22,378 nt of DNA, from the IMG/VR virus record IMGVR_UViG_2721755651_000013; one strand, 5' to 3'. How positions within the stretch are numbered: the stretch's first letter is position 1; each line of letters begins with the position of its first letter. Of this stretch, positions 676 to 20,941 are shown piece by piece. Under the pieces are notes generated by a model. The model made no database searches. It worked only from the letters and a program-made list of their open reading frames with translations, and had not been told where the DNA came from. A program made the translations under genes and the position numbers. The DNA comes from a virus. Taxonomy: Duplodnaviria; Heunggongvirae; Uroviricota; Caudoviricetes.

Positions 676-1632
676 GTGACTAGTTATTCAAACTTTTCCA
701 ATCAAATAAAAGAAACCATCAATAATAAATTCGATCATGAAATTCATGATTGGGACATTATAAAAAACTCAATCACAACTTTAATAAATAAAAATATCCA
801 TGGTGCAGGTAGAAATATCGTTGATTTTATAGATTTAGGTAACTGGGATTTTATTTCAAACTTTTCCTTTGATGACTCTACAAGAAGACTTGAATTAGAG
901 TGGCACCCCAATGATAAATTCCATATATATATTGAGTCCGTTGTGTTTGTCGAGTTTAATGACACTATATATGCTTTCTTAAAGGGATACTATCACAATC
1001 AGTTATCTCTAAATAGAATATATAATACAAAATGCTCTTCATGTTCATTTGAAAACTCAGGTTCTTATATGGTAGACGTTTATAGAACGGTTAAAAGAGT
1101 AAATGAGACAATCCAGACCCCAAATATAAATTGCTATACTACATGTATTTTAACAAGGCCCGCAAATGGTCATGTTACATCTACAGGCTTCTCACGAAAC
1201 CTCATGGATGCGATAAATATTTCATTAGCAGAGCACAAAATAGCCTCTTTACATAATGAAGTCATGAGTATTGAGGAATATGATCGTGATTCTTTACAAG
1301 AGAAAGGAAATACTGCCAGGAGATATTTAGAATATATTCTCATGCTTGTTAATATTCGTATAATGCATTTAAACAACGTTCAATACCAAGAGCAAATGCT
1401 AGGTAGTTTAGTTTCTGTTATTGAGGCTCTGGACTATGAACCATTAATGAAAAATGATGTTGAAATTACAAAGGACATCCTTAATGCTTGCAGCCACCAC
1501 GGGGGGGTTAGAATTGAAAAGAAAGATGTAATTTTTTCTTTGGAAGTTATTGAAAACTTAATTAAAGCCATAAAGAAAACCGACATAAATAAATTACAAC
1601 TCGATGGGATGTTTAAATCAATTCAAAAATAA
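676..1632 (+). CDS. Hypothetical protein, AT-rich orphan cargo gene at the alpha-distal end of the P4-like element
   Basis: 318-aa ORF with GTG start preceded by GAGG about 6 nt upstream; strongly AT-rich compared with the neighbouring P4 core genes; strong hairpin downstream; no motif I can recognise. Confidence 0.6.
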   Translation: MTSYSNFSNQIKETINNKFDHEIHDWDIIKNSITTLINKNIHGAGRNIVDFIDLGNWDFISNFSFDDSTRRLELEWHPNDKFHIYIESVVFVEFNDTIYAFLKGYYHNQLSLNRIYNTKCSSCSFENSGSYMVDVYRTVKRVNETIQTPNINCYTTCILTRPANGHVTSTGFSRNLMDAINISLAEHKIASLHNEVMSIEEYDRDSLQEKGNTARRYLEYILMLVNIRIMHLNNVQYQEQMLGSLVSVIEALDYEPLMKNDVEITKDILNACSHHGGVRIEKKDVIFSLEVIENLIKAIKKTDINKLQLDGMFKSIQK

Positions 1633-1764: not shown

Positions 1765-4098
1765 TTATTTCGCTGCAAACTCATCGCATTTTGGCAACCA
1801 GTCAGCATTGCTTTCCTCTCTTAGGGCCAGATTAGTCTGCATTCCTTGATTGGTCCGTCGTTTCTCATACTGCAGCCCATATTCCTTGAGCATTAACGGT
1901 AGCCCCTTGCCAAACATGGTCAGACTGAGCGTATTTTTATAGCCGTTAGCCTCCATGTAGACCAGATAGGCATGGTAGAGGTAAGTTCGAGGCTGACGTG
2001 GAACAATATTAGCGTTCCCCATAAACATGCCCGTGGTGTCAGGTAGGACCTCAAGGTAGCCGCAAAAATCAAAAGCTGAATCAGCATCACGTTTGATGGT
2101 GAGCGCTTCATCGGAGTTCTGCTGTGACTGAAGCAATGTCCTGGCACTCATTGGGTCGCTGAAACGCTGCATAAGCTGGCGAACAATCACCGCTAGCTCA
2201 CTGGCAATTTTCTCTTTGAGCTGGGTATCGCGTTCCTCCGGGGCTATCTGGTCGGGGAAATGCAGGATCACCCTTCGGCGTGAAACTCCACCACTACGAT
2301 CAGTGAAGCGCATCGGATTATTGTTCACAGCCAGGATGACCGCCGGGATGTGGGTTGAATAGGCGTTCTGATATTTGGGATCAACGGATACCGCATCGCC
2401 GCCAGTGATGGCTTTTAGTCCGGCCCCGTCACCGCTCCACTTTTCCTGGTCGGGAAGTCGAATCAGTGAAAAACCTATTAACGCAGCTCGTTCTCTTGGC
2501 GACTCAAGCATTTCAATGGTTGCCGAGGTCGCGTTATCTTCACCCGCCAGCATGGTTGCTATTTCAGCAAGAATACTCTTTCCACTTCCGCCAGGGCCAG
2601 TGACCTCCAGAAACAGCTGCCAGTCATAACGGTTAGCCAGCACCATAAACAATGCAGCCAGAATAATGTCCCGTTTTTCAGGATTAAAACCTGCGGCACG
2701 ATCCAGCCAGCGCCAGAATGCCGGGGCATGGGTTTCCAGTGACTCACCGTCAACGGGCTGCGTGTAATCCACCTCGCACAGCGTACGTAACCAGTGCTTC
2801 TTATCGTGCGGGCTGAACAATCCTGTCCGGGTATCGAGCACACCGTTGCGAAATCCGATAAGTTGCCGCGCCGGATTCTGCTGTTGCGGAACGATCAGTT
2901 TGAGGGTTTCCACGAGAGACGCAATTTTCGCGGATGAAAAAGGTGCGTCGAGGCGCTGAAACAGCGCAGCGACATCACGGGCAAAATCGGCGTAATAGAT
3001 AACTTTCCAGGCCCCCGCCTCATAGCGTGAAAGGAGCTGCCCGTTCGGGTCTACTGCCAGTGAATTTTTATAGTGATCCACTACCCTCTGCGCTTTTTCG
3101 CTGACGCTCAGCGCGGTAAATTCAGCTTCGCTCATTGTGTCGAAGGGGCTGGCAACAGCTGGTTTTATTACTTCATGAATTGCATGCCGGGTGGCTTCTT
3201 CGCCGTTTTGCGTGAATGCATCGTTCCAGTCACCAAACACAGGCGGGAGCGCCATTGTGCAATTGCAGGCCCCGGTAACAGCTGCGCCCCTTGTTTGCCC
3301 CGCACCGTTGAGATCGCGGTCAGCAGCAATAATTATCTGGTGCGTTGGGTACTCACTGCAGGCAATGCTCGCCAGGGAAAGGAAATTGACGGACGAAAAG
3401 GCCACCATGACAGCATCGCCAGTCAGATAGTTGATAGTAAGTGCGGTGGCATATCCTTCCGCTATCCAGAGCCGTTTGGCTGCTTTGGCAGTACCTTCAA
3501 CCAGGTAAAAGGCATTCTTAACCTGACCGCCTTTAAGGAAGCATTTGCCCCCATTAGCGTTGATTAACTGCAGATTTACCAGCTCTCCATCTGCATACAA
3601 TGGAACGACAAGATCTCCCGCGCGAAATGCCACACCACCGACTTTATGCATAGCGGTTAATTCCCGGCAAGGCAGTGCAGGAAACCCTTTACTCGTCAGA
3701 TAGGCATTGCCAGTGGTCTGGCGGGACTTATCAAACAAACGGGCAGCCAGCACTGCTGCAGCTTTTCTCCCGTCCTCTTTTTCAGGAGAACCAGATTCAA
3801 GCATTCCCTGAGATACTGGCAGCAGGTTTCCGATAATGCCGTTTATTCTGTCTGCCGCTTCACTAATGCCTACATCCAGTACTTTACTTACAAGCGCCAG
3901 GCCATCACCTGCCCCGCACTGGTTACAGAACCACGTTCCCCGCCCTTCCTGGTCATCAAATCGAAAGCGGTCTTTCCCGGCACAGACCGGGCAGGGCTGG
4001 TGCCGATTTTTCAGTACATTTACGCCCAGCGCAGGTAAAATTCTTGACCAGTGACCCCGAGCTGCTTTCTCAGCCTGGCTAACTTTCATTCCTGACAT
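1765..4098 (-). CDS. P4 alpha-type bifunctional primase/helicase (zinc-binding primase domain + TOPRIM + D5-type NTPase)
   Basis: Protein has CPVCAGKDRFRFDD...FCNQCG zinc motif, Walker A GPGGSGKS, and overall P4 alpha-like layout. Start moved to the ATG at 4096..4098 because AAGGAGG lies 8 nt upstream; this gives 777 aa. The ORF-track start at 4155 is probably an upstream extension. Confidence 0.9.
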   Translation of the reverse strand: MSGMKVSQAEKAARGHWSRILPALGVNVLKNRHQPCPVCAGKDRFRFDDQEGRGTWFCNQCGAGDGLALVSKVLDVGISEAADRINGIIGNLLPVSQGMLESGSPEKEDGRKAAAVLAARLFDKSRQTTGNAYLTSKGFPALPCRELTAMHKVGGVAFRAGDLVVPLYADGELVNLQLINANGGKCFLKGGQVKNAFYLVEGTAKAAKRLWIAEGYATALTINYLTGDAVMVAFSSVNFLSLASIACSEYPTHQIIIAADRDLNGAGQTRGAAVTGACNCTMALPPVFGDWNDAFTQNGEEATRHAIHEVIKPAVASPFDTMSEAEFTALSVSEKAQRVVDHYKNSLAVDPNGQLLSRYEAGAWKVIYYADFARDVAALFQRLDAPFSSAKIASLVETLKLIVPQQQNPARQLIGFRNGVLDTRTGLFSPHDKKHWLRTLCEVDYTQPVDGESLETHAPAFWRWLDRAAGFNPEKRDIILAALFMVLANRYDWQLFLEVTGPGGSGKSILAEIATMLAGEDNATSATIEMLESPRERAALIGFSLIRLPDQEKWSGDGAGLKAITGGDAVSVDPKYQNAYSTHIPAVILAVNNNPMRFTDRSGGVSRRRVILHFPDQIAPEERDTQLKEKIASELAVIVRQLMQRFSDPMSARTLLQSQQNSDEALTIKRDADSAFDFCGYLEVLPDTTGMFMGNANIVPRQPRTYLYHAYLVYMEANGYKNTLSLTMFGKGLPLMLKEYGLQYEKRRTNQGMQTNLALREESNADWLPKCDEFAAK

Positions 4099-6400: not shown

Positions 6401-7153
6401 ATGACAATCCCAGAACAGAACAATAACCCGATCGTTGAAATTTCTATCCCTGTTTCGACGCAACAGGCGCTTGAGAAAGTGAATGCCACCAAATCTGCAT
6501 GGCTTGAAGCACGTCGTCAGCAAAAAGCGGCAGCGGATAATATTGCGACAATCCGCCAGCGCCGCGCTGAAATGGAAGCCACGACGAACGCCCTGAATGA
6601 GGAGTGGCGCACGCTATTTCGTGAAAGTCAGGGCGTAGTCTCAAAGGAAATGAAAAAACTGCGCACGGAAATTGCGCTGGGACGAGAAACGCTTGAGGAT
6701 TTTGATGAGCTGCTGGCGGCTCAGGAAAGCGAAAATGCACTTTTGCCGCAGGAGGCTGCGGAATTAGCCGGAAAGTATATCCACGCGCACGACACCCTTG
6801 TGGGTATTCGCGCAAAACAAATCTGGGAAGATTTTATGCAGTCGCATGGAAAAGCACTAATCCAGACACTAAGCCTGCTCAAATCAACAATGGGCAGGGA
6901 AGCCAGCGCAGTTGTCGGTGTGGTGCATTCAGTTAATGACCCGGACACACTGCTGAAAGATTTTATTCATAAACATATCACCAGACCGGCTCTGACTAAC
7001 GATGCGATGCCCGAACAGGACCCCGTGTTTAAACTGGCGGGAGTTGCCCCGGATTATGCGGCCCGTCTGGATTTCAGTAATAAACTCTCTCCAGCAGCTA
7101 TGCATAAAATGAAGGTTCGTCAGGAACGTGCTGAGAAGGAGAAAGCAGTATGA
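6401..7153 (+). CDS. sid: Sid-like capsid size-determination (external scaffold) protein
   Basis: 250 aa (P4 Sid is about 244 aa); first gene after the late promoter; shares the AWL...DFMQ.HG.AL motif with the next ORF, consistent with Sid and Psu being related; AGGTG Shine-Dalgarno. Confidence 0.65.
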   Translation: MTIPEQNNNPIVEISIPVSTQQALEKVNATKSAWLEARRQQKAAADNIATIRQRRAEMEATTNALNEEWRTLFRESQGVVSKEMKKLRTEIALGRETLEDFDELLAAQESENALLPQEAAELAGKYIHAHDTLVGIRAKQIWEDFMQSHGKALIQTLSLLKSTMGREASAVVGVVHSVNDPDTLLKDFIHKHITRPALTNDAMPEQDPVFKLAGVAPDYAARLDFSNKLSPAAMHKMKVRQERAEKEKAV

Positions 7154-7701
7154 TGGCCCGAGTCACTCCAGACCAAGCGCTTATCAGTTTTAGAAATGCC
7201 CGTATTCTGTGGGCTGGACATAGTGAGAGCCGAAAAGCCGTTGAACAACAGATAGAATCACTCCTCACTGCCATGGAAAAACCAGCAGATTATGCTCGAC
7301 AGCTCGAATTACAGCGGGAACATCTGGATGTGCTGAAATGGCAAATTAACTGTGCTGCGCGCGAATGCATTTACTCGCAGCATCAACTGATGGAGGCCTG
7401 CACAGAAGACGCTCTCAGCAATTTTATGCAGGCGAATGGAGCAGCCCTGACATCTGCACTGGCTCCGTTCCTGAAGGGGCGCGGAGGGGTTGACGTTGCG
7501 TCCCGTATATTACGCAATGCTCTGGTTCGCCAGCTGGCAATAACACCGCCTGAAATTGCCGGGGATTATCGTATGATTCTGGATGAATCCGGTGTGATGC
7601 CTGACCCCATGATGGTTCGTGATTGCCAGAGCTCTTACACCCCTGCACAACAACTGCGCTTTCAGCAACGTCTGGATTACATTAACGGCATGCAGGAGTA
7701 A
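7150..7701 (+). CDS. psu: Psu-like polarity suppression / capsid decoration protein
   Basis: 183 aa (P4 Psu about 190 aa); FMQANGAALTSALAPFL and a C-terminal TPAQQ segment resemble what I recall of P4 Psu; ATGA start/stop overlap with sid. Confidence 0.7.
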   Translation: MMARVTPDQALISFRNARILWAGHSESRKAVEQQIESLLTAMEKPADYARQLELQREHLDVLKWQINCAARECIYSQHQLMEACTEDALSNFMQANGAALTSALAPFLKGRGGVDVASRILRNALVRQLAITPPEIAGDYRMILDESGVMPDPMMVRDCQSSYTPAQQLRFQQRLDYINGMQE

Positions 7702-7706
7702 TATTA

Positions 7707-7979
7707 ATGGCACTTAAATGTCCCGAATGCGGTACGACGGCACACGCCAGAACCTCCGCCTATGAAGCACCATCGGTTAAACGCTCATGGTATCAGTGCC
7801 AGAATCTTGAATGTTCCTACACATTTACCGCACTGGAAAGTGTGGATACGATAATCATGAAGCCCCGGCGCAATGAACAGGAATCAGAGAAAGCACAAAT
7901 GCCGGAAAAACAACAGCAAACTCTCAATCGCTATGGCTCCGCGTCAAAGCTGTCAAGCCGTCAGCAAATTCCTGTCTGA
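7707..7979 (+). CDS. delta: Delta/Ogr-family zinc-finger late transcriptional activator
   Basis: N-terminus CPECGTTAHARTS...YQCQNLECSYTF is the C2-C2 Ogr/Delta zinc-finger signature; GGAG Shine-Dalgarno 7 nt upstream. Confidence 0.85.
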   Translation: MALKCPECGTTAHARTSAYEAPSVKRSWYQCQNLECSYTFTALESVDTIIMKPRRNEQESEKAQMPEKQQQTLNRYGSASKLSSRQQIPV

Positions 7980-8100: not shown

Positions 8101-8332
8101 ACCATTTTTGACGCGAAAGCCCTTGTGTGGTGGCTTCTGAGACGATTTGCGGAATGCATGAAAACCAGTCTGTTAAGCGAAGCGAGCAGGCGTGGGGGGC
8201 TGCGCGCGCTAAGGGGTTAGATTATAAAATATCAAACGCCGGTGAGATCCATTATTGTGGAACCACCCGAAGGAAGTGTAGAGGCGAAAGTACCCAAAAT
8301 AATTTTGCAAATTATTTAGAAATGAACTGAGC

Positions 8333-8358
8333 GCTCGAAACGAAATATAATTTCGAGC
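8333..8358 (-). terminator. Hairpin gctcgaaa-N10-tttcgagc just 3' of the minus-strand cargo operon
   Basis: Perfect 8-bp inverted repeat with 10-nt loop located about 30 nt after the stop of the last cargo ORF (8389); no strong U-tract. Confidence 0.4.
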
Positions 8359-8388
8359 ACCCCAATTAGCAGTTATATTTTTAATGTA

Positions 8389-8955
8389 TTAAACAGGATA
8401 AAAACCAGAGCTTCCATTCTTATTTAAGTTATGGATTTTATTTGCATCATTAATTTTTATTTGGAACGTCGGACCTTTATTCTCAAGAATTACAATCTGG
8501 AAATTATAGTCCCTTTTGATTAATGCGTGATAAAATGAATCACTGAGACTGACGCTATTAACATCCGATAGAGAACCCCCTCTATCTTTATCAAAGTGCG
8601 TCACTAATGGACTATCAAGCACAACAAATCCAATGAATGGATTCCCTTTTCTTGATAAAAATTCCGCAAAGCAAATGGTAAATATAGCATGCATTACTGC
8701 ACGGGTACCTTTACCAAACATTCCTCGGCGTTTCCCATTGATATTAAAGTCATATGTATCTTCGTCAAATCGCACTTTGTTATCTTTAGAATTTTCAAAA
8801 TTTATATCATTCAAAAAGTCTTGCATCGCTATTTCTATATCATACAAATCAGCTACTGTTAAGGAGTCAAAGTCCTCGGCGGAGTATTTAAGTTCGTCAA
8901 CATCATCTTCTTTATCTTGTAATGAAGATAGAATGCTATGTTTTGTGTGATCCAT
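8389..8955 (-). CDS. C-terminal ABC/SMC-type ATPase head segment (putative Walker B/D-loop region) of the cargo ATPase
   Basis: 188 aa; GMFGKGTRAVMHAIF (signature-like) followed by NPFIGFVVLDSPLVTHFD (hydrophobic strand + Asp, Walker-B-like); TAATG stop/start overlap with the upstream ORF; no Shine-Dalgarno; reading frame is open about 20 codons upstream of the ATG. Confidence 0.5.
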   Translation of the reverse strand: MDHTKHSILSSLQDKEDDVDELKYSAEDFDSLTVADLYDIEIAMQDFLNDINFENSKDNKVRFDEDTYDFNINGKRRGMFGKGTRAVMHAIFTICFAEFLSRKGNPFIGFVVLDSPLVTHFDKDRGGSLSDVNSVSLSDSFYHALIKRDYNFQIVILENKGPTFQIKINDANKIHNLNKNGSSGFYPV

Positions 8956-9545
8956 TAAAAGATTGTCTTTATATTCATAAAGTGATTCAAGAGATGAATG
9001 TATTGTTTTATATTTTTATCTTCTAACGTCTTAAAATCACTTTTTTCTGATTGATAAATTTCATTAACATCATTTTTTCTTAACATAATTAATTCATGTT
9101 CGCGAACATTAGATCCGATTGATTCAATTAATCCTTTCAGCTGGCTTTTGATTTTCAATTTTTCTGCATTACACGACAAAAAACAATCATCATATGATAT
9201 TTCATTTTCTTTTTTTTGCGGTGTATTACAGAACTCACAATAAATATCTGCAAAATTATTTAAATAGAAATTCGCCTGTGATACAACATCTATTCTTTGT
9301 AGATCTATAAAGTATTGGTCTTTAAGAAGACTAAATCTTTCAATGAGTAATGATAAGTATTTTTCCCTGTCACTGATTGAATATAATTCATCACTTAACT
9401 CTTTTAATAATTGCTTCTTATCATCAAGTGCATCAACAATACCTTTCAATATATCTTTCGATGATTCAATATCTTGCTCTACTTTCTCAAGTTCTCTTGA
9501 AACAATGACTTGATCATATTCAGGATAAATTAATTGCGCTTTCAA
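8955..9545 (-). CDS. Coiled-coil segment of the cargo SMC-like ATPase (no canonical start; same frame as the upstream ORF, separated by one TAA)
   Basis: 196 aa, highly charged (E/K/D/L-rich) helical heptad-like sequence; ORF-track start is TTG with no usable Shine-Dalgarno spacing; in frame with 9576..10208. Confidence 0.45.
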   Translation of the reverse strand: MKAQLIYPEYDQVIVSRELEKVEQDIESSKDILKGIVDALDDKKQLLKELSDELYSISDREKYLSLLIERFSLLKDQYFIDLQRIDVVSQANFYLNNFADIYCEFCNTPQKKENEISYDDCFLSCNAEKLKIKSQLKGLIESIGSNVREHELIMLRKNDVNEIYQSEKSDFKTLEDKNIKQYIHLLNHFMNIKTIF

Positions 9546-9575
9546 TTCCTCATAAATATTTGCAATTTGATTTTT

Positions 9576-10208
9576 TTAAAAATATCTTGCTTTTTTATTT
9601 GGTTTTTCTGCTAAGGAGTTAGTATCATCTCTCTGAGTTAAAAGGAATTTAAATTCAGACTTTCTTTTTGTCTCCTCGCTAGGAATATCAGAAAGAATTA
9701 ACGACTTCTCAGTTAACACTCTTAATTCATCAATACAAAAAAATTCAAAAACATTATTAAGATTAAATTTATGAAGAGTATTACTTAAGTTTGTTCTTAC
9801 TTTAGCCTCTTTGAAATTCAACCTACCATAAAAGTATGATGAAAAACTCTTTTTAGACGAAGCACTTTTGGAAAAAACCATCAACAGATTAGCTTCACTA
9901 ACATTTTCAATGCTCGAATCATATAATCTGTAATGGGCGCTATCCTGAAGAGACCTCTCAATTGTCATTACCCTACCTTGAAAATTAAATTCCAGATAGG
10001 CTAAATCATAACCTTGAGCATGATCGATATCTTTATTTTTTAGTTTTTCACTCCCTAATAAATATCGAATCAAATAATATATGTATGTTTTTCCAGAGTC
10101 AGAACCACCATATAAAATAGTCAATTTAGAACCAAATTCAATTATAGCATCTAATTTATTGAATCCGGTTACCTTTATTTTTCTGAACGTAAAAAAATTG
10201 TCATTCAT
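9576..10208 (-). CDS. N-terminal ABC/SMC-type ATPase head with Walker A (GGSDSGKT)
   Basis: MNDNFFTFRKIKVTGFNKLDAIIEFGSKLTILYGGSDSGKTYIYYL is the canonical N-terminal strand plus P-loop layout of RecF/SbcC/SMC-like ABC ATPases; start moved to the ATG at 10206..10208, which overlaps the upstream stop (ATGAATGA). Confidence 0.65.
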   Translation of the reverse strand: MNDNFFTFRKIKVTGFNKLDAIIEFGSKLTILYGGSDSGKTYIYYLIRYLLGSEKLKNKDIDHAQGYDLAYLEFNFQGRVMTIERSLQDSAHYRLYDSSIENVSEANLLMVFSKSASSKKSFSSYFYGRLNFKEAKVRTNLSNTLHKFNLNNVFEFFCIDELRVLTEKSLILSDIPSEETKRKSEFKFLLTQRDDTNSLAEKPNKKARYF

Positions 10209-10659
10209 AATTAAATTCCATATCATATTTGCCAATTTTATTTTTTATAATTGATTGCAACTGCTCATCAGGAATATCACTATATAACTTAACCACCAAA
10301 TTTATATTATGCTCCATCTGCGCAACATATTCATTATGTAGAGAATTTGTAAATGCATATGTTTTTTCAGAAGCTTTATATACAAAACCACGATGTGTAT
10401 AAATTTTTGAGGCTAGTTCATAGCCTTGCAACAAAGCCAATGATTCTAAAACAATCTCTCGTTTTAGGGCTAACTGAGCATCTCTACGGGGTATTGGAGG
10501 ATGAAGACTAATCTCTTCAGGTAAAAAATCCTTAAGATTTACTAAAATAAAATCAAAACAAATAAGCCGTTCAAGGCTTAATGAAGAAGGATAAATAGCG
10601 ACGAGCACTTTCGCCATTCGACATGCCACTTCTAAACTTGAATTATAAATTCTAACCAT
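10201..10659 (-). CDS. Small alpha-helical protein, putative middle component (LmuC-like) of a three-component ATPase system
   Basis: 152 aa when started at the ATG at 10657..10659 (TAATG overlap with upstream stop, GGTGAG upstream); located between the nuclease-like ORFs and the ATPase, as in ABC-3C/Lamassu type II loci. Assigned by position and size only. Confidence 0.5.
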   Translation of the reverse strand: MVRIYNSSLEVACRMAKVLVAIYPSSLSLERLICFDFILVNLKDFLPEEISLHPPIPRRDAQLALKREIVLESLALLQGYELASKIYTHRGFVYKASEKTYAFTNSLHNEYVAQMEHNINLVVKLYSDIPDEQLQSIIKNKIGKYDMEFNYE

Positions 10660-11276
10660 TATCTCACCGTCCAAATTACTTCACCATCATTAACCAAATG
10701 ATGGCATATTCCTTTTTTATCATTTGCTTCACATATTTTTGATAGTACTGAATGTGCAATTGGTGTCAGAACAGCCTGCTTCAAGACTGCATTACACCTA
10801 ATAAATGCATAATTATGGTCTTCATAAAAGACGGGTTCAATTGAAGATGAAATGTAACATTTCAATGCTTTGAATACATCATCTTTAAATACTTCGCGGA
10901 CAAAAACCTCAAGCGAAGATGCAAAATAAAAATCATTTCTACTATTATTAAAGTGTCGTCTGTATGGATCATCAAGCTCTAAGAAAGAACTATAAGTTTT
11001 ATTTCCATGCTCTGAATAGGCTTGAAGCAGTGCATTAACATATACAGACTCTTTTTTTGAATTGTATGTTGGAATTTCATTTGGAGGGATTCTCACGACA
11101 TACAGCTCGTTAAAGTACTTAAAATAAAGGTGTGTATTTGCAATATCATTTAAAATCAATGATAAGGGTAGAGAGTAAAAAATACTAAAATCAAAATCCT
11201 CAATATATTTTTTTATTTCATCATCTAATGGAATATCAATCTTTTTAGTTATTTTTTTGAAATTGCTGAATCCCAT
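10659..11276 (-). CDS. Hypothetical protein; probably the C-terminal part of the effector, reachable by a -1 shift from 11249..11665
   Basis: 205 aa; only one Met (the start) and no Shine-Dalgarno; overlaps the upstream ORF by 28 nt in the -1 frame across an A7 tract. Confidence 0.5.
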   Translation of the reverse strand: MGFSNFKKITKKIDIPLDDEIKKYIEDFDFSIFYSLPLSLILNDIANTHLYFKYFNELYVVRIPPNEIPTYNSKKESVYVNALLQAYSEHGNKTYSSFLELDDPYRRHFNNSRNDFYFASSLEVFVREVFKDDVFKALKCYISSSIEPVFYEDHNYAFIRCNAVLKQAVLTPIAHSVLSKICEANDKKGICHHLVNDGEVIWTVR

Positions 11277-11665
11277 GAATCAAGGACTGCTTTTTTAAGC
11301 TCGTTTTTATTTTTCAATAAATTAGAAAATGTAGTAGATAAATCATAGGGTGCCACAAAAAAGTACTTCTGAGGGATGGGATAATCACCATTCAGAGTAA
11401 AATAGATAAGTTTTCCAAACTCAACTACAACATCAGAGAACCCTAAACTTTTTTTGTACAGTTTGCATTGATAATTATCCCAAGAATAACCTTCTACGTT
11501 AGGATCCGATTTATATCCAACAACGTCTCTACCTTTATCTCCAGCTCCTCCCAAACGTTCGCTCCACGGGTAATCATCTGATTTACAGACAATAAGCCAA
11601 TCATGGACAAATACCTCCCATTGTTCATCATCCCATGTCAATATTTCCGAAAGTGGTTGAGACAC
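11249..11665 (-). CDS. Mrr-like PD-(D/E)xK nuclease domain protein (putative effector N-terminal domain)
   Basis: 138 aa; WEVFVHDWL...GGAGDKGRDVVGY...YQCKLY matches the E ... G-D-x-G-x-D ... Q-x-K pattern of Mrr-type restriction-endonuclease catalytic domains; GTG start with AAGGAG 7 nt upstream, embedded in the 3' end of int. Confidence 0.6.
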   Translation of the reverse strand: MSQPLSEILTWDDEQWEVFVHDWLIVCKSDDYPWSERLGGAGDKGRDVVGYKSDPNVEGYSWDNYQCKLYKKSLGFSDVVVEFGKLIYFTLNGDYPIPQKYFFVAPYDLSTTFSNLLKNKNELKKAVLDSWDSAISKK

Positions 11666-11668
11666 AAA

Positions 11669-12850
11669 TTAACTCCTTTTTAGTCTTTCAAATATCAAAT
11701 TACTGTACCAGTCCATCATAGACTTCCTTCCACTAAAATATTGAGCATGGTTATAAGTCCCCCTAATAGAATTTTTATCTACATGAGCCAACTGGATTTC
11801 AATCCAAGCACTCTCAAAACCTTGCTCATGCAGGATTGTAGAAAGGGTATGACGAAAACCATGTCCAGTGACTTTTCCTCCATACCCAATACGCTTAATG
11901 GCTTGATTTATACTCGCTTCGCTCATTGGCCTATTCGGATCGTTCCGCCCTGGAAAAACATAACGATAGTTCCCTGTCATGATCTTGAGTTCATTGAGTA
12001 AATCTACCGCTTGAGATGATAAGGGCACAAGATGTGGCCTACGCATTTTCATCCTTTCAGCAGGAATTTCCCAAATAGCGTTATCCAGATCAAATTCTTG
12101 CCATAATGCCGCGCGTAATTCGATGGTTCTCACACCCGTAATCATCAGTAATTTCGTGGCTATCTGGACAAGCTTACTCCCGGAGTAACCCTCTAAGGCA
12201 CGTAGAAAATCAGGTATCTCATCAGCTTTTAGGAATGGGAAATGATTGGATTGGTGTACTTCGAGAGCGCTGGAGAGATCAGCCGCAGGATTGTACTCCG
12301 CCCTACCCGTTGCAATTGCGTAGCGAAACACTTCGGAGCAACGCTGCCGCACTTTGCGCATTTTCTCCAACGCACCACGTTTCTCAATTTTACGCAGAAC
12401 GTTCAGCAGCTCTAGCGGTTTAATCTCTCCCACAGGCCTTGTTCCGACATAAGGAAAAATGTCGTTCTTAAACGCTTCCATGATGTCTGATGCATATCCC
12501 GCCGACCATTTAGCAGATTTAAGTTGATGCCACTCTCTGGCTATCTTTTCGAAGGCGTTCTCTGACTCTGTTTGCATAGCTAGCTTTTGCTCTTTTCGAA
12601 CCTCACTAGGGTTCTTTCCTTCTGCCACAAGTTTTCGAGCTTCATCACGACGGGAACGAGCATCGGCAAGGGTGATCGTTGGGTAAACACCAAGCGAGAT
12701 CATTTTGGGTTTGCCGGCATAGCGATAGCGGAACCGCCAACTCTTGCTTCCATTAGGTTCTATAAGTAATGACAACCCTAGCCCATCTCCAAATGTATAG
12801 GCTTTAGCTTCAGGCTTAGCGCGGCGAATCTGCATATCGTTTAAAGGCAT
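11669..12850 (-). CDS. int: P4-type tyrosine integrase
   Basis: N-terminus MPLNDMQIRRAKPEAKAY...DGLGLSLLIEPNGSKSWRFRYR is the P4-integrase N-terminal signature; C-terminal HGFRHT...Y catalytic motifs; start moved to the ATG at 12848..12850 (393 aa); adjacent to a tRNA-derived att. Confidence 0.9.
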   Translation of the reverse strand: MPLNDMQIRRAKPEAKAYTFGDGLGLSLLIEPNGSKSWRFRYRYAGKPKMISLGVYPTITLADARSRRDEARKLVAEGKNPSEVRKEQKLAMQTESENAFEKIAREWHQLKSAKWSAGYASDIMEAFKNDIFPYVGTRPVGEIKPLELLNVLRKIEKRGALEKMRKVRQRCSEVFRYAIATGRAEYNPAADLSSALEVHQSNHFPFLKADEIPDFLRALEGYSGSKLVQIATKLLMITGVRTIELRAALWQEFDLDNAIWEIPAERMKMRRPHLVPLSSQAVDLLNELKIMTGNYRYVFPGRNDPNRPMSEASINQAIKRIGYGGKVTGHGFRHTLSTILHEQGFESAWIEIQLAHVDKNSIRGTYNHAQYFSGRKSMMDWYSNLIFERLKRS

Positions 12851-18602: not shown

Positions 18603-19195
18603 TGAAACCTGTTTTTGATGAAAATGGGCTGGCTACAGTGCCGGGCGATATGCGTTGTTTTTATTATGATGCTGAAACATCTGAGTATACGGGCTGGTCT
18701 GATGAATATATTAATACTGGCGTAAGTATGCCCGCCTGTTCCACTGGTATTGACCCTGGCGAAAACATTCCGGGAAGAGTGGCAGTATTTACAGGTAAGG
18801 GATGGAGCCATGAAGAAGACCATCGCAATGAGACTGTTTACTCAATCGAAAATGGCGCAGCTGTTACAGTGGATTATATCGGTGCCATCAAAGACGGTTA
18901 TGTCACGATTTCACCGTTAACGCCATACGATAAATGGGATGGTGAGAAATGGGTGACAGACACTGAGGCACAACACAGTGCCGCAGTAGACGCGGCAGAA
19001 GCACAGCGCCAATCACTGATTGATGCAGCAATGGCTTCCATTAGTCTGATTCAGCTGAAGTTACAGGCCGGACGGAAACTGACTCAGGCAGAAACAACCC
19101 GACTTAACGCCGTGCTGGATTACATTGACGCGGTGACGGCAACAGATACCAGCACCGCGCCGGATGTCATCTGGCCTGAACTGCCGGAGGCGTAG
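18602..19195 (+). CDS. tfa: Tail fibre assembly protein (Tfa/U-like)
   Basis: 197 aa, TAATG coupling to the fibre segment; C-terminal ...LDYIDAV...DTS.APDVIWPELP motif typical of Tfa chaperones. Confidence 0.75.
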   Translation: MKPVFDENGLATVPGDMRCFYYDAETSEYTGWSDEYINTGVSMPACSTGIDPGENIPGRVAVFTGKGWSHEEDHRNETVYSIENGAAVTVDYIGAIKDGYVTISPLTPYDKWDGEKWVTDTEAQHSAAVDAAEAQRQSLIDAAMASISLIQLKLQAGRKLTQAETTRLNAVLDYIDAVTATDTSTAPDVIWPELPEA

Positions 19196-19619
19196 GCCAT
19201 TCAATATCTGGCGCACCGGAAGTATCGACCAGCTCCAGTGCGTCCAGATAATCCAGCCACAAATTATATTGCGTCAGTTCGTCACCTTTCAGACGACCAA
19301 TAGCCGCTTTACCGGGCCATTGCTTACTGTTCATGTATTCGTTGGCCTGGTTAATTAGTAGCTGTCTTTCTGATTCAGTAATTTCAATAAGCTCTTCATG
19401 CGTGGGTGGAGGAATATCTGCCCACGCAGGCAGCCCATCATCTCCGGCAATACGGATTTTTCCTTGTGGCGGTTCAGCCATAAACTCACTGATAATATTT
19501 TGATTTACTTCCTTAGCGTCTGATAAATCCCATCCCTCTGATTTATATTTATCAATCATATCCACAGGGAAAAAAGCATTATGCCTTGCGCTATAAACAT
19601 ATTCGTCCATATAAATCAC
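19167..19619 (-). CDS. tfa: Alternative tail fibre assembly protein (Tfa'/U'-like) on the opposite strand
   Basis: 150 aa with the same C-terminal Tfa motif (LWLDYLDAL...DTSGAPDIEWPTPP), tail-to-tail with the other tfa as in invertible G/P segments; its partner fibre segment is missing (IS copy 2 starts at 19674). Confidence 0.65.
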   Translation of the reverse strand: MIYMDEYVYSARHNAFFPVDMIDKYKSEGWDLSDAKEVNQNIISEFMAEPPQGKIRIAGDDGLPAWADIPPPTHEELIEITESERQLLINQANEYMNSKQWPGKAAIGRLKGDELTQYNLWLDYLDALELVDTSGAPDIEWPTPPAVQAR

Positions 19620-19727
19620 CCTGAATAAAATTACTCACCAACAGCCCACCAACTGTAATTCATCGATACCGTGTGAACCGCCCCGGGTTTCCTGGAGACT
19701 AAACTCCCTGAGAAAGAGGTAAACAGG

Positions 19728-20054
19728 ATGACTAAAAATACTCGTTTTTCCCCCGAAGTCCGTCAGCGGGCGATTCGTATGGTTCTGGAAAGTCAGGATG
19801 AATATGACTCACAGTGGGCGGCAATTTGTTCCATTGCCCCAAAGATTGGCTGTACGCCGGAGACTCTGCGTGTCTGGGTTCGCCAGCATGAGCGGGATAC
19901 CGGGGGCGGTGATGGTGGGCTCACCAGCGCTGAACGTCAGCGTCTGAAAGAGCTGGAACGTGAAAATCGTGAACTGCGCCGCAGTAACGATATCCTTCGC
20001 CAGGCTTCCGCTTATTTTGCGAAGGCGGAGTTCGACCGCCTCTGGAAAAAATGA
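19728..20054 (+). CDS. IS3-family transposase OrfA
   Basis: Identical 108-aa protein to 16320..16646. Confidence 0.9.
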
Positions 20055-20941
20055 TGCCACTGCTGGATAAGCTGCGTGAGCAGTACGGGGTCGGACCGGT
20101 ATGCAGCGAACTGCATATTGCCCCGTCAACGTATTACCATTGTCAGCAACAGCGACATCATCCGGATAAACGCAGTGCCCGTGCGCAGCACGACGACTGG
20201 CTGAAGAGAGAGATACAGCGCGTATACGATGAAAATCATCAGGTGTACGGTGTGCGTAAAGTCTGGCGTCAGTTGTTACGGGAAGGAATCAGGGTGGCCA
20301 GATGTACAGTGGCACGTCTCATGGCGGTTATGGGACTTGCCGGTGTTCTCCGGGGTAAAAAGGTCCGTACGACCATCAGCCGGAAAGCCGTTGCCGCAGG
20401 CGACCGCGTAAACCGTCAGTTCGTGGCAGAACGACCTGACCAGCTGTGGGTGGCTGATTTTACTTACGTCAGCACATGGCAGGGCTTCGTCTATGTGGCG
20501 TTTATCATTGATGTGTTTGCCGGATACATCGTGGGGTGGCGGGTCTCATCGTCTATGGAAACGACATTCGTGCTGGATGCGCTGGAGCAGGCGTTGTGGG
20601 CCCGTCGTCCGTCTGGCACCATCCATCACAGCGATAAAGGCTCTCAGTATGTGTCACTGGCCTATACGGAGCGACTAAAAGAAGCCGGATTACTGGCATC
20701 AACAGGGAGTACAGGCGACTCGTATGACAACGCGATGGCTGAGAGCATCAATGGTCTTTACAAAGCGGAGGTAATACACCGTAAGAGCTGGAAAAACCGT
20801 GCAGAAGTGGAACTGGCCACACTAACGTGGGTGGACTGGTATAACAATCGACGATTGCTGGGAAGGCTGGGCCATACTCCTCCGGCAGAAGCAGAAAAAG
20901 CTTATTATGCTTCCATCGGAAACGATGATCTGGCAGCCTGA
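20051..20941 (+). CDS. IS3-family transposase OrfB
   Basis: Identical 296-aa protein to 15433..16323. Confidence 0.9.

Follow-up and report, generated by a model that had tools for sequence, protein, structure and literature searches.

The LmuB ATPase of short type II Lamassu systems (LmuACB / DdmABC) has a length of about 600 aa and contains the Walker A motif Gx4GK[S/T], the Walker B motif hhhhD[Q/S/T/E] and a central coiled coil that may bear up to two CxxC zinc hooks (PMC12663957). The defining features of these systems are also given in bioRxiv 10.1101/2025.06.23.660979. The mode of action has been described for the V. cholerae system (PMC12663957) and is applied here by homology. In intact systems a LmuA1-LmuB2-LmuC1 complex, with LmuB as the ATPase sensor, would be formed and would detect DNA ends or phage replication intermediates. 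Hydrolysis of ATP would then free LmuA, which would oligomerise to the active nuclease and thereby lead to abortion of the infection. Judged by homology, the ancestral system of the E. coli locus described below would presumably have been active as well. LmuB shares with Rad50/SbcC and the SMC proteins the ABC head split by a coiled-coil insertion as well as the zinc hook, and there are weak profile matches to the N-terminal heads of these proteins. LmuB differs from them, however, in that its coiled coil is much shorter, its partners are LmuC and LmuA and not Mre11/SbcD or kleisins, and the role of Lamassu is defence and not repair (PMC12663957).

The stretch of DNA analysed here (22,378 nucleotides, in the following called the window) is identical to positions 301279-323656 of the E. 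coli O157:H7 Sakai sequence NC_002695.2 in reverse-complemented orientation. It takes in the terminal part of Sp1, a lambda-like prophage, and the greater part of the prophage Sp2, which is annotated as P4-like with intS, ogr/delta, psu, sid and primase. A block with a GC content of 27-32% at about 8.4-11.7 kb holds an operon with an ATPase locus of three open reading frames. The block is bordered upstream by the P4-type integrase gene intS (11669..12850, minus strand) and on the opposite side by the P4 sid-like, psu and ogr/delta genes (6401..7979, plus strand). In P4-like satellites the interval from the integrase to psu/delta is the place where defence cargo is held, and the operon lies as cargo in exactly this interval. 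A terminator-like hairpin (8329..8362, minus strand) with a 13-pair stem and a T-rich tail follows 27 nt past the last stop codon of the operon and probably marks its end. A promoter scan gave results no better than those for shuffled sequence and was left unused.

The three open reading frames of the ATPase locus are read from the minus strand. ORF 1 starts with the ATG at 10208, encodes the Walker A sequence GGSDSGKT and stops at the TAA at 9576..9578 inside TATTTTTAAAAAAAT. Past this stop codon the same frame is open again until the TAA at 8955..8957 (ORF 2), and the first start codon in this part is the TTG at 9545. ORF 3 extends from the ATG at 8955..8953 to 8389 and overlaps the stop codon of ORF 2 as TAATG; its frame is open 20 codons upstream of the ATG (KYKTIHSSLESLYEYKDNLL, from 9015). 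In a preliminary description of this DNA the three reading frames, the stop codon and the TAATG overlap had been reported, and on re-reading the sequence all these statements proved to be correct. An in-frame TAA and a frameshift were seen there as interrupting the gene for an SMC/LmuB-like ATPase. Three explanations were put forward without a choice among them, namely a recently inactivated pseudogene, readthrough or recoding, and separately expressed polypeptides.

The assignment to LmuB is borne out by profile searches and by orthologues. The products of ORFs 1, 2 and 3 match one and the same PADLOC LmuB profile (PDLC03863, 610 positions) at positions 3-199, 210-412 and 428-608, with E values of 1e-49, 5e-22 and 5e-37, respectively. 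Since the three products fall on consecutive parts of a single profile, they are parts of one gene, far beyond chance. This gene, lmuB (8389..10208, minus strand; ECs_0293), codes for an SMC/Rad50-like ABC ATPase with a conceptual product of 606 aa after repair. The first fragment (9576..10208) comprises the N-terminal half of the ATPase head with the Walker A motif (aa 34-41) and matches AAA_23 and SMC_N of Pfam. The second fragment (8955..9575) corresponds to the coiled-coil arm with the CxxC zinc hook CEFC (aa 324-327); its coiled-coil character is assigned by analogy to the family. The third fragment (8389..8955) is the C-terminal half of the head with the conserved GKGxRA motif and the Walker B motif FVVLDS (aa 528-533), and matches DUF3732 just under the gathering threshold. 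The repaired LmuB thus has all features of a short LmuB, and 10 sequences all retain the two cysteines of the hook, C324 and C327. A search of NCBIfam gave no match for any of the six open reading frames. Likewise phmmer and a 10-sequence profile found no significant relative of LmuB among the PDB sequences, with only marginal matches to SMC and Rad50 heads (E ~0.01-0.05).

The end-to-end alignment of the three conceptual products with intact relatives, proposed in the preliminary description, showed that the homology to intact 606-aa orthologues runs straight across both junctions with no gaps. The search with the conceptual LmuB fusion yielded 37 protein clusters. The closest relatives are 606-aa orthologues from Proteus mirabilis (88% identity, 100% coverage) and Pantoea alhagi (75% identity), followed by about 25 further clusters of 594-612 aa with 43-47% identity. 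The Proteus orthologue itself matches PDLC03863 with an E value of 3.4e-117 over positions 6-605. Homologues of about 594-621 aa are all encoded by single open reading frames. Neither among the 37 clusters nor among the plasmid and genome matches was a protein found that is split at these junctions; apart from one deletion fusion, the shorter entries are all sequences that are partial or truncated.

On the DNA level the two junctions could be traced to single nucleotide changes. At the first junction TATTTTTTAAAAAATC in Proteus stands against TATTTTTAAAAAAATC in the window. The codon TTA for Leu211 is changed to TAA (9576..9578) by a T to A exchange at 9577. Codon 211 encodes leucine in all nine aligned homologues (9/9) and reads TTA in every orthologue. 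At the second junction Proteus has GGTAAAAAATATAAAA and the window GATAAAAATATAAAA, that is, a run of six A is shortened to five (9013..9017), seen as a single gap in the DNA alignment. This 1-bp deletion shifts the frame and produces the apparent TAATG overlap 60 nt downstream. The whole operon comprises 3277 nt in the window versus 3279 nt in four intact orthologous operons, i.e. exactly 2 nt less, and the only gaps in the alignment of the operon DNA are located at about 11259 in lmuA and at about 9018 in lmuB. When the two bases are put back, full-length LmuA, LmuC and LmuB are obtained and the TAA is the sole remaining defect.

The two genes preceding lmuB complete the operon. The gene lmuC (10201..10659, minus strand) codes for the ABC-3C middle component MC2 (152 aa; Pfam MC2 E = 5.5e-30, PADLOC LmuC E = 2.8e-36), is intact and has the same length as in the orthologues. 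The gene lmuA (10659..11665, minus strand) codes for an Mrr-like PD-(D/E)xK nuclease domain followed by CTD6, and is a pseudogene as well. It is split into an ORF of 138 aa with the nuclease domain and one of 205 aa with CTD6 (Pfam E = 7.7e-30), which overlap by 28 nt. Both match one PADLOC LmuA profile, at positions 10-140 and 141-333, and correspond to the single 335-aa protein of intact orthologues. The alignment with these orthologues traces the split to a 1-bp deletion at 11249..11258, where a run of seven A is followed by a stop codon (TCA AAA AAA TAA in frame 0). The nuclease domain Mrr_cat was found in 8 of 40 LmuA family members (8/40). A single-sequence AlphaFold model of the 138-aa fragment was unusable (pLDDT 38), and a model of a Xenorhabdus homologue (P0038, 69% identical to Proteus LmuA) based on a 40-sequence alignment was used instead. 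For this model (pLDDT 94) the top fold matches are the solved V. cholerae LmuA chains 9nxx and 9ny1, followed by PD-(D/E)xK nucleases.

From these comparisons we conclude that the operon is a short type II Lamassu system (ABC-3C) with an Mrr-type effector, lmuA(Mrr nuclease-CTD6)-lmuC(MC2)-lmuB, and a pseudogenised member of this group. It shares with the described systems the order lmuA-lmuC-lmuB, an LmuB of about 600 aa with one CxxC hook, and the MC2-type LmuC. With the Mrr subtype it has in common the N-terminal Mrr_cat and the CTD6 of LmuA and the location in a defence hotspot of a mobile element. The difference lies in lmuA, which carries a 1-bp deletion, and in lmuB, which carries a 1-bp deletion and the TAA. 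The solved Cap4-type system of V. cholerae is very distant in sequence; LmuB has no match in the PDB on the sequence level and LmuA matches at the fold level only. Much closer are the operons of Proteus mirabilis (GCA_054147305.1; 89% nucleotide identity over the 3.28-kb operon) and Pantoea alhagi (CP019706.1; 79% over 3.28 kb). Both have genes for 335, 152 and 606 aa, and the latter is situated in a P4-like element with the same int...ogr/delta-psu-sid context as in the window. In contrast to the window, neither operon has the TAA or either of the 1-bp deletions.

We then looked at the distribution of the lesions within E. coli. The operon is present in 309 E. coli records (308 of 5426 complete genomes), in all cases with at least 99% identity and always in the O157:H7/O55:H7 lineage. 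A stretch of 701 bp is 100% identical in most of these independently assembled records. Since the same lesions occur in most of the 309 assemblies, sequencing errors do not account for them. The population-wide allele counts given here are taken from BLAST identity listings and not from full alignments of all 309 records. With a query of 161 nt, 10 records matched the TTA allele with 100% identity: the O55:H7 strains RM12579, USDA5905, DEC5A, DEC5B, DEC5D, DEC5E and TB182A, furthermore FDAARGOS_946, the O157 strain 493/89 and the O157:H7 strain LSU61. Two more TTA records fall in the 95-99% identity band, giving a total of 12, and the allele with one mismatch, TAA, is found in about 297 records. 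In O55:H7 CB9615 the TTA at codon 211 was seen directly. The frameshift in lmuB, on the other hand, is fixed, as an lmuB query repaired to A6 found no 100% match among the 309 records. The lmuA deletion is present in all five E. coli sequences aligned in full (5/5), and over the 161 nt flanking it all full-length rows sampled show 100% identity.

Further lesions are restricted to parts of the lineage. Both O55:H7 strains aligned have a 1-bp deletion at 9046. CB9615 has additional private lesions in lmuB, namely a T insertion at 9744, a nonsense mutation at Q214 (CAA to TAA) and three missense mutations (positions 2032-3217 of the extracted locus), which points to decay running in parallel along the O55:H7 branch. 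In O157 strain 272 one base of the A8 run at 9217 was confirmed to be deleted. About one quarter of the sampled E. coli records likewise match one base short, at 9217 or elsewhere. In three strains IS1203 is inserted in the head fragment of lmuB (e.g. M1300706002, positions 2272-3490 of the extracted locus), and in NCCP 13918 int and the N-terminal part of lmuA are lost next to an IS element (positions 2235-3500 of the extracted locus); 7 other records show the same truncated coverage. The IS events in the operon involve the IS3 family (IS1203/IS629) and are independent. The deletion fusion mentioned above is a 344-aa product from a Logan assembly (P0027) in which the C-terminus of LmuC (..IIKN) is joined to QIANIYEELK of the LmuB coil (~10240..9570). 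The whole head fragment is gone, which points to the loss of about 640 bp between two similar AAAAAAT(A/C)AAATTG..CAAATAT stretches.

All four indels are situated in homopolymer runs of at least 6 bases, of which there are 21 in the 27-32% GC operon. The 10 substitutions among five E. coli alleles comprise 7 missense, 2 nonsense and 1 synonymous change. Among the codons with a single difference between E. coli and Proteus, 81 are non-synonymous and 190 synonymous. The ratio of 9:1 within the lineage differs from 81:190 with p = 2e-4 in Fisher's test.

Taken together, it is very probable that the three open reading frames are the remains of one lmuB gene, that the Lamassu system is dead and undergoes neutral decay, and that an ordinary pseudogene and not a recoded gene is present. 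The first of the three explanations in the preliminary description, inactivation by nonsense mutation plus frameshift, is thereby strongly supported. The homology spans both junctions in intact orthologues, and the comparison of orthologous loci, likewise proposed there, showed that stop codon and frameshift are missing in the orthologues and that the stop codon is missing even in sister E. coli lineages. The head fragment of ORF 1 retains Walker A alone, Walker B and the signature-side half are encoded in another frame, and the coil piece is left without a credible start. We propose that lmuA and lmuB each lost one base of an A run in an ancestor shared by the O55:H7 and O157 strains sampled, and that the change of TTA to TAA at codon 211 came afterwards on the branch to typical O157:H7, followed by the clade-specific indels and IS events.

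We considered two ways in which a working LmuB could be obtained from the locus in spite of the lesions. First, the N-terminal half of the head, the coiled coil and the C-terminal half of the head could be made as separate polypeptides and reassemble into a working sensor. PGAP does call three CDSs in most O157:H7 genomes, and the TAATG overlap could couple the translation of the third fragment by termination-reinitiation. Nevertheless, this possibility appears very improbable. As stated above, no homologue is split at these points, and the split is younger than the divergence of 493/89 from typical O157:H7. The second fragment has no ATG or GTG start and its TTG directly abuts the nearest GAGGA motif, and a single ABC head has its catalytic motifs spread over ORF 1 and ORF 3. 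Moreover, the effector is broken, too. The CTD of LmuA anchors the effector to LmuB and LmuC (PMC12663957), and in the window the LmuA nuclease part is cut off from this tether. In the sublineages the fragments are shortened still further.

Second, full-length LmuB could be produced by programmed recoding, that is, by readthrough of the TAA and a -1 ribosomal frameshift before the TAATG. The frames are indeed placed in such a way that LmuB would be restored by a single readthrough together with a single -1 shift. Yet the presumed signals are not conserved: the orthologues are all single open reading frames and TTA is found in the sister E. coli lineages. The interval from 9047 to 8955 of lmuB holds no X XXY YYZ heptamer in frame 0. 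The probabilities of two rare events would multiply, and TAA is the most efficient terminator in E. coli. The break in lmuA, unlike that in lmuB, is situated on an A AAA AAA heptamer with a stop codon immediately after it. A -1 slip on this heptamer would regain the orthologous sequence AISKKITKK, but the slippery run is the product of the deletion itself. Additional frameshifts and a second stop codon build up in sublineages. We regard recoding as barely credible. In a minor variant of the permissive loss discussed below, which is unlikely, -1 slippage at A AAA AAA-TAA might still give traces of full-length LmuA; as lmuB is dead, the slippery site has no obvious consequence.

A sequencing or assembly artefact in the homopolymer tracts is of negligible probability: the lesions all lie in or beside A/T runs, which are error-prone on some platforms, but the same alleles recur in about 300 complete genomes sequenced independently in many laboratories and on many platforms, and their distribution is phylogenetically coherent, with TTA confined to the O55:H7 strains, FDAARGOS_946, 493/89 and LSU61.

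Within the preferred explanation, a decayed pseudogene, it may be asked whether the loss was neutral. Lamassu is a sensor of lambdoid replication origins and renders plasmids unstable (PMC12663957). If the inactivation in the O55:H7/O157:H7 ancestor was permissive and not neutral, which we consider unlikely, the loss could have helped the lineage to gather pO157 and its lambdoid prophages (including Stx), of which it has unusually many, and the kept lmuC and fragment ORFs would be simple leftovers. The lmuC gene and the nuclease-domain fragment of lmuA are intact open reading frames in more than 300 genomes. This would fit an inactivation that took place not long ago, and it could also reflect some residual use; products of the locus may be made at a low level.

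In RefSeq NC_002695.2 ECs_0293 (313449..315268) is already annotated as a pseudogene of an AAA family ATPase, and Lamassu is well studied; the finding for lmuB is therefore already known and concerns an ordinary pseudogene. PGAP records such as that of EDL933 show three CDSs at the locus, and both the Sakai annotation and PGAP list the lmuA pieces (ECs_0290 and ECs_0291) as two ordinary CDSs. What appears to be added here is the recognition of lmuA (ECs_0290 + ECs_0291) as a pseudogene, the ordered series of lesions and an exception to a generalisation on P4 satellites. Defence pseudogenes have been stated to be rare in P4-like satellites (PMC13586616), and the Sp2 Lamassu locus is a clear counter-example to this statement. 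The three PGAP CDSs named hypothetical protein or AAA family ATPase and the two lmuA CDSs in about 300 O157:H7 genomes are pieces of one Lamassu-Mrr system, which should not be counted as active in inventories of O157:H7 defence systems. The ordered lesions could be used as lineage markers.

Three observations were made in the surroundings of the operon. The replication genes O and P of Sp1 (~19336..20258 and ~19028..19339; positions 2121-3351 of the extracted locus) are annotated as pseudogenes in Sakai, which indicates that the neighbouring lambda-like prophage is degraded too. The record NZ_CP044147.1, named 'plasmid pAR-0428-2', is a linear sequence of 46.9 kb with chromosomal genes of Sp1 and Sp2 including the Lamassu operon. 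The possibility that it represents an episomal P4 was rejected, as the record is linear and carries chromosomal genes; it is probably an unplaced chromosomal contig. Finally, the far end of Sp2 holds a 318-aa orphan ORF (ECs_0304; 676..1632, plus strand) in a patch of 29-39% GC just past the P4 primase gene. Neither Pfam nor PADLOC gave a match for this ORF, which could represent a second cargo gene with an accessory or defence role.
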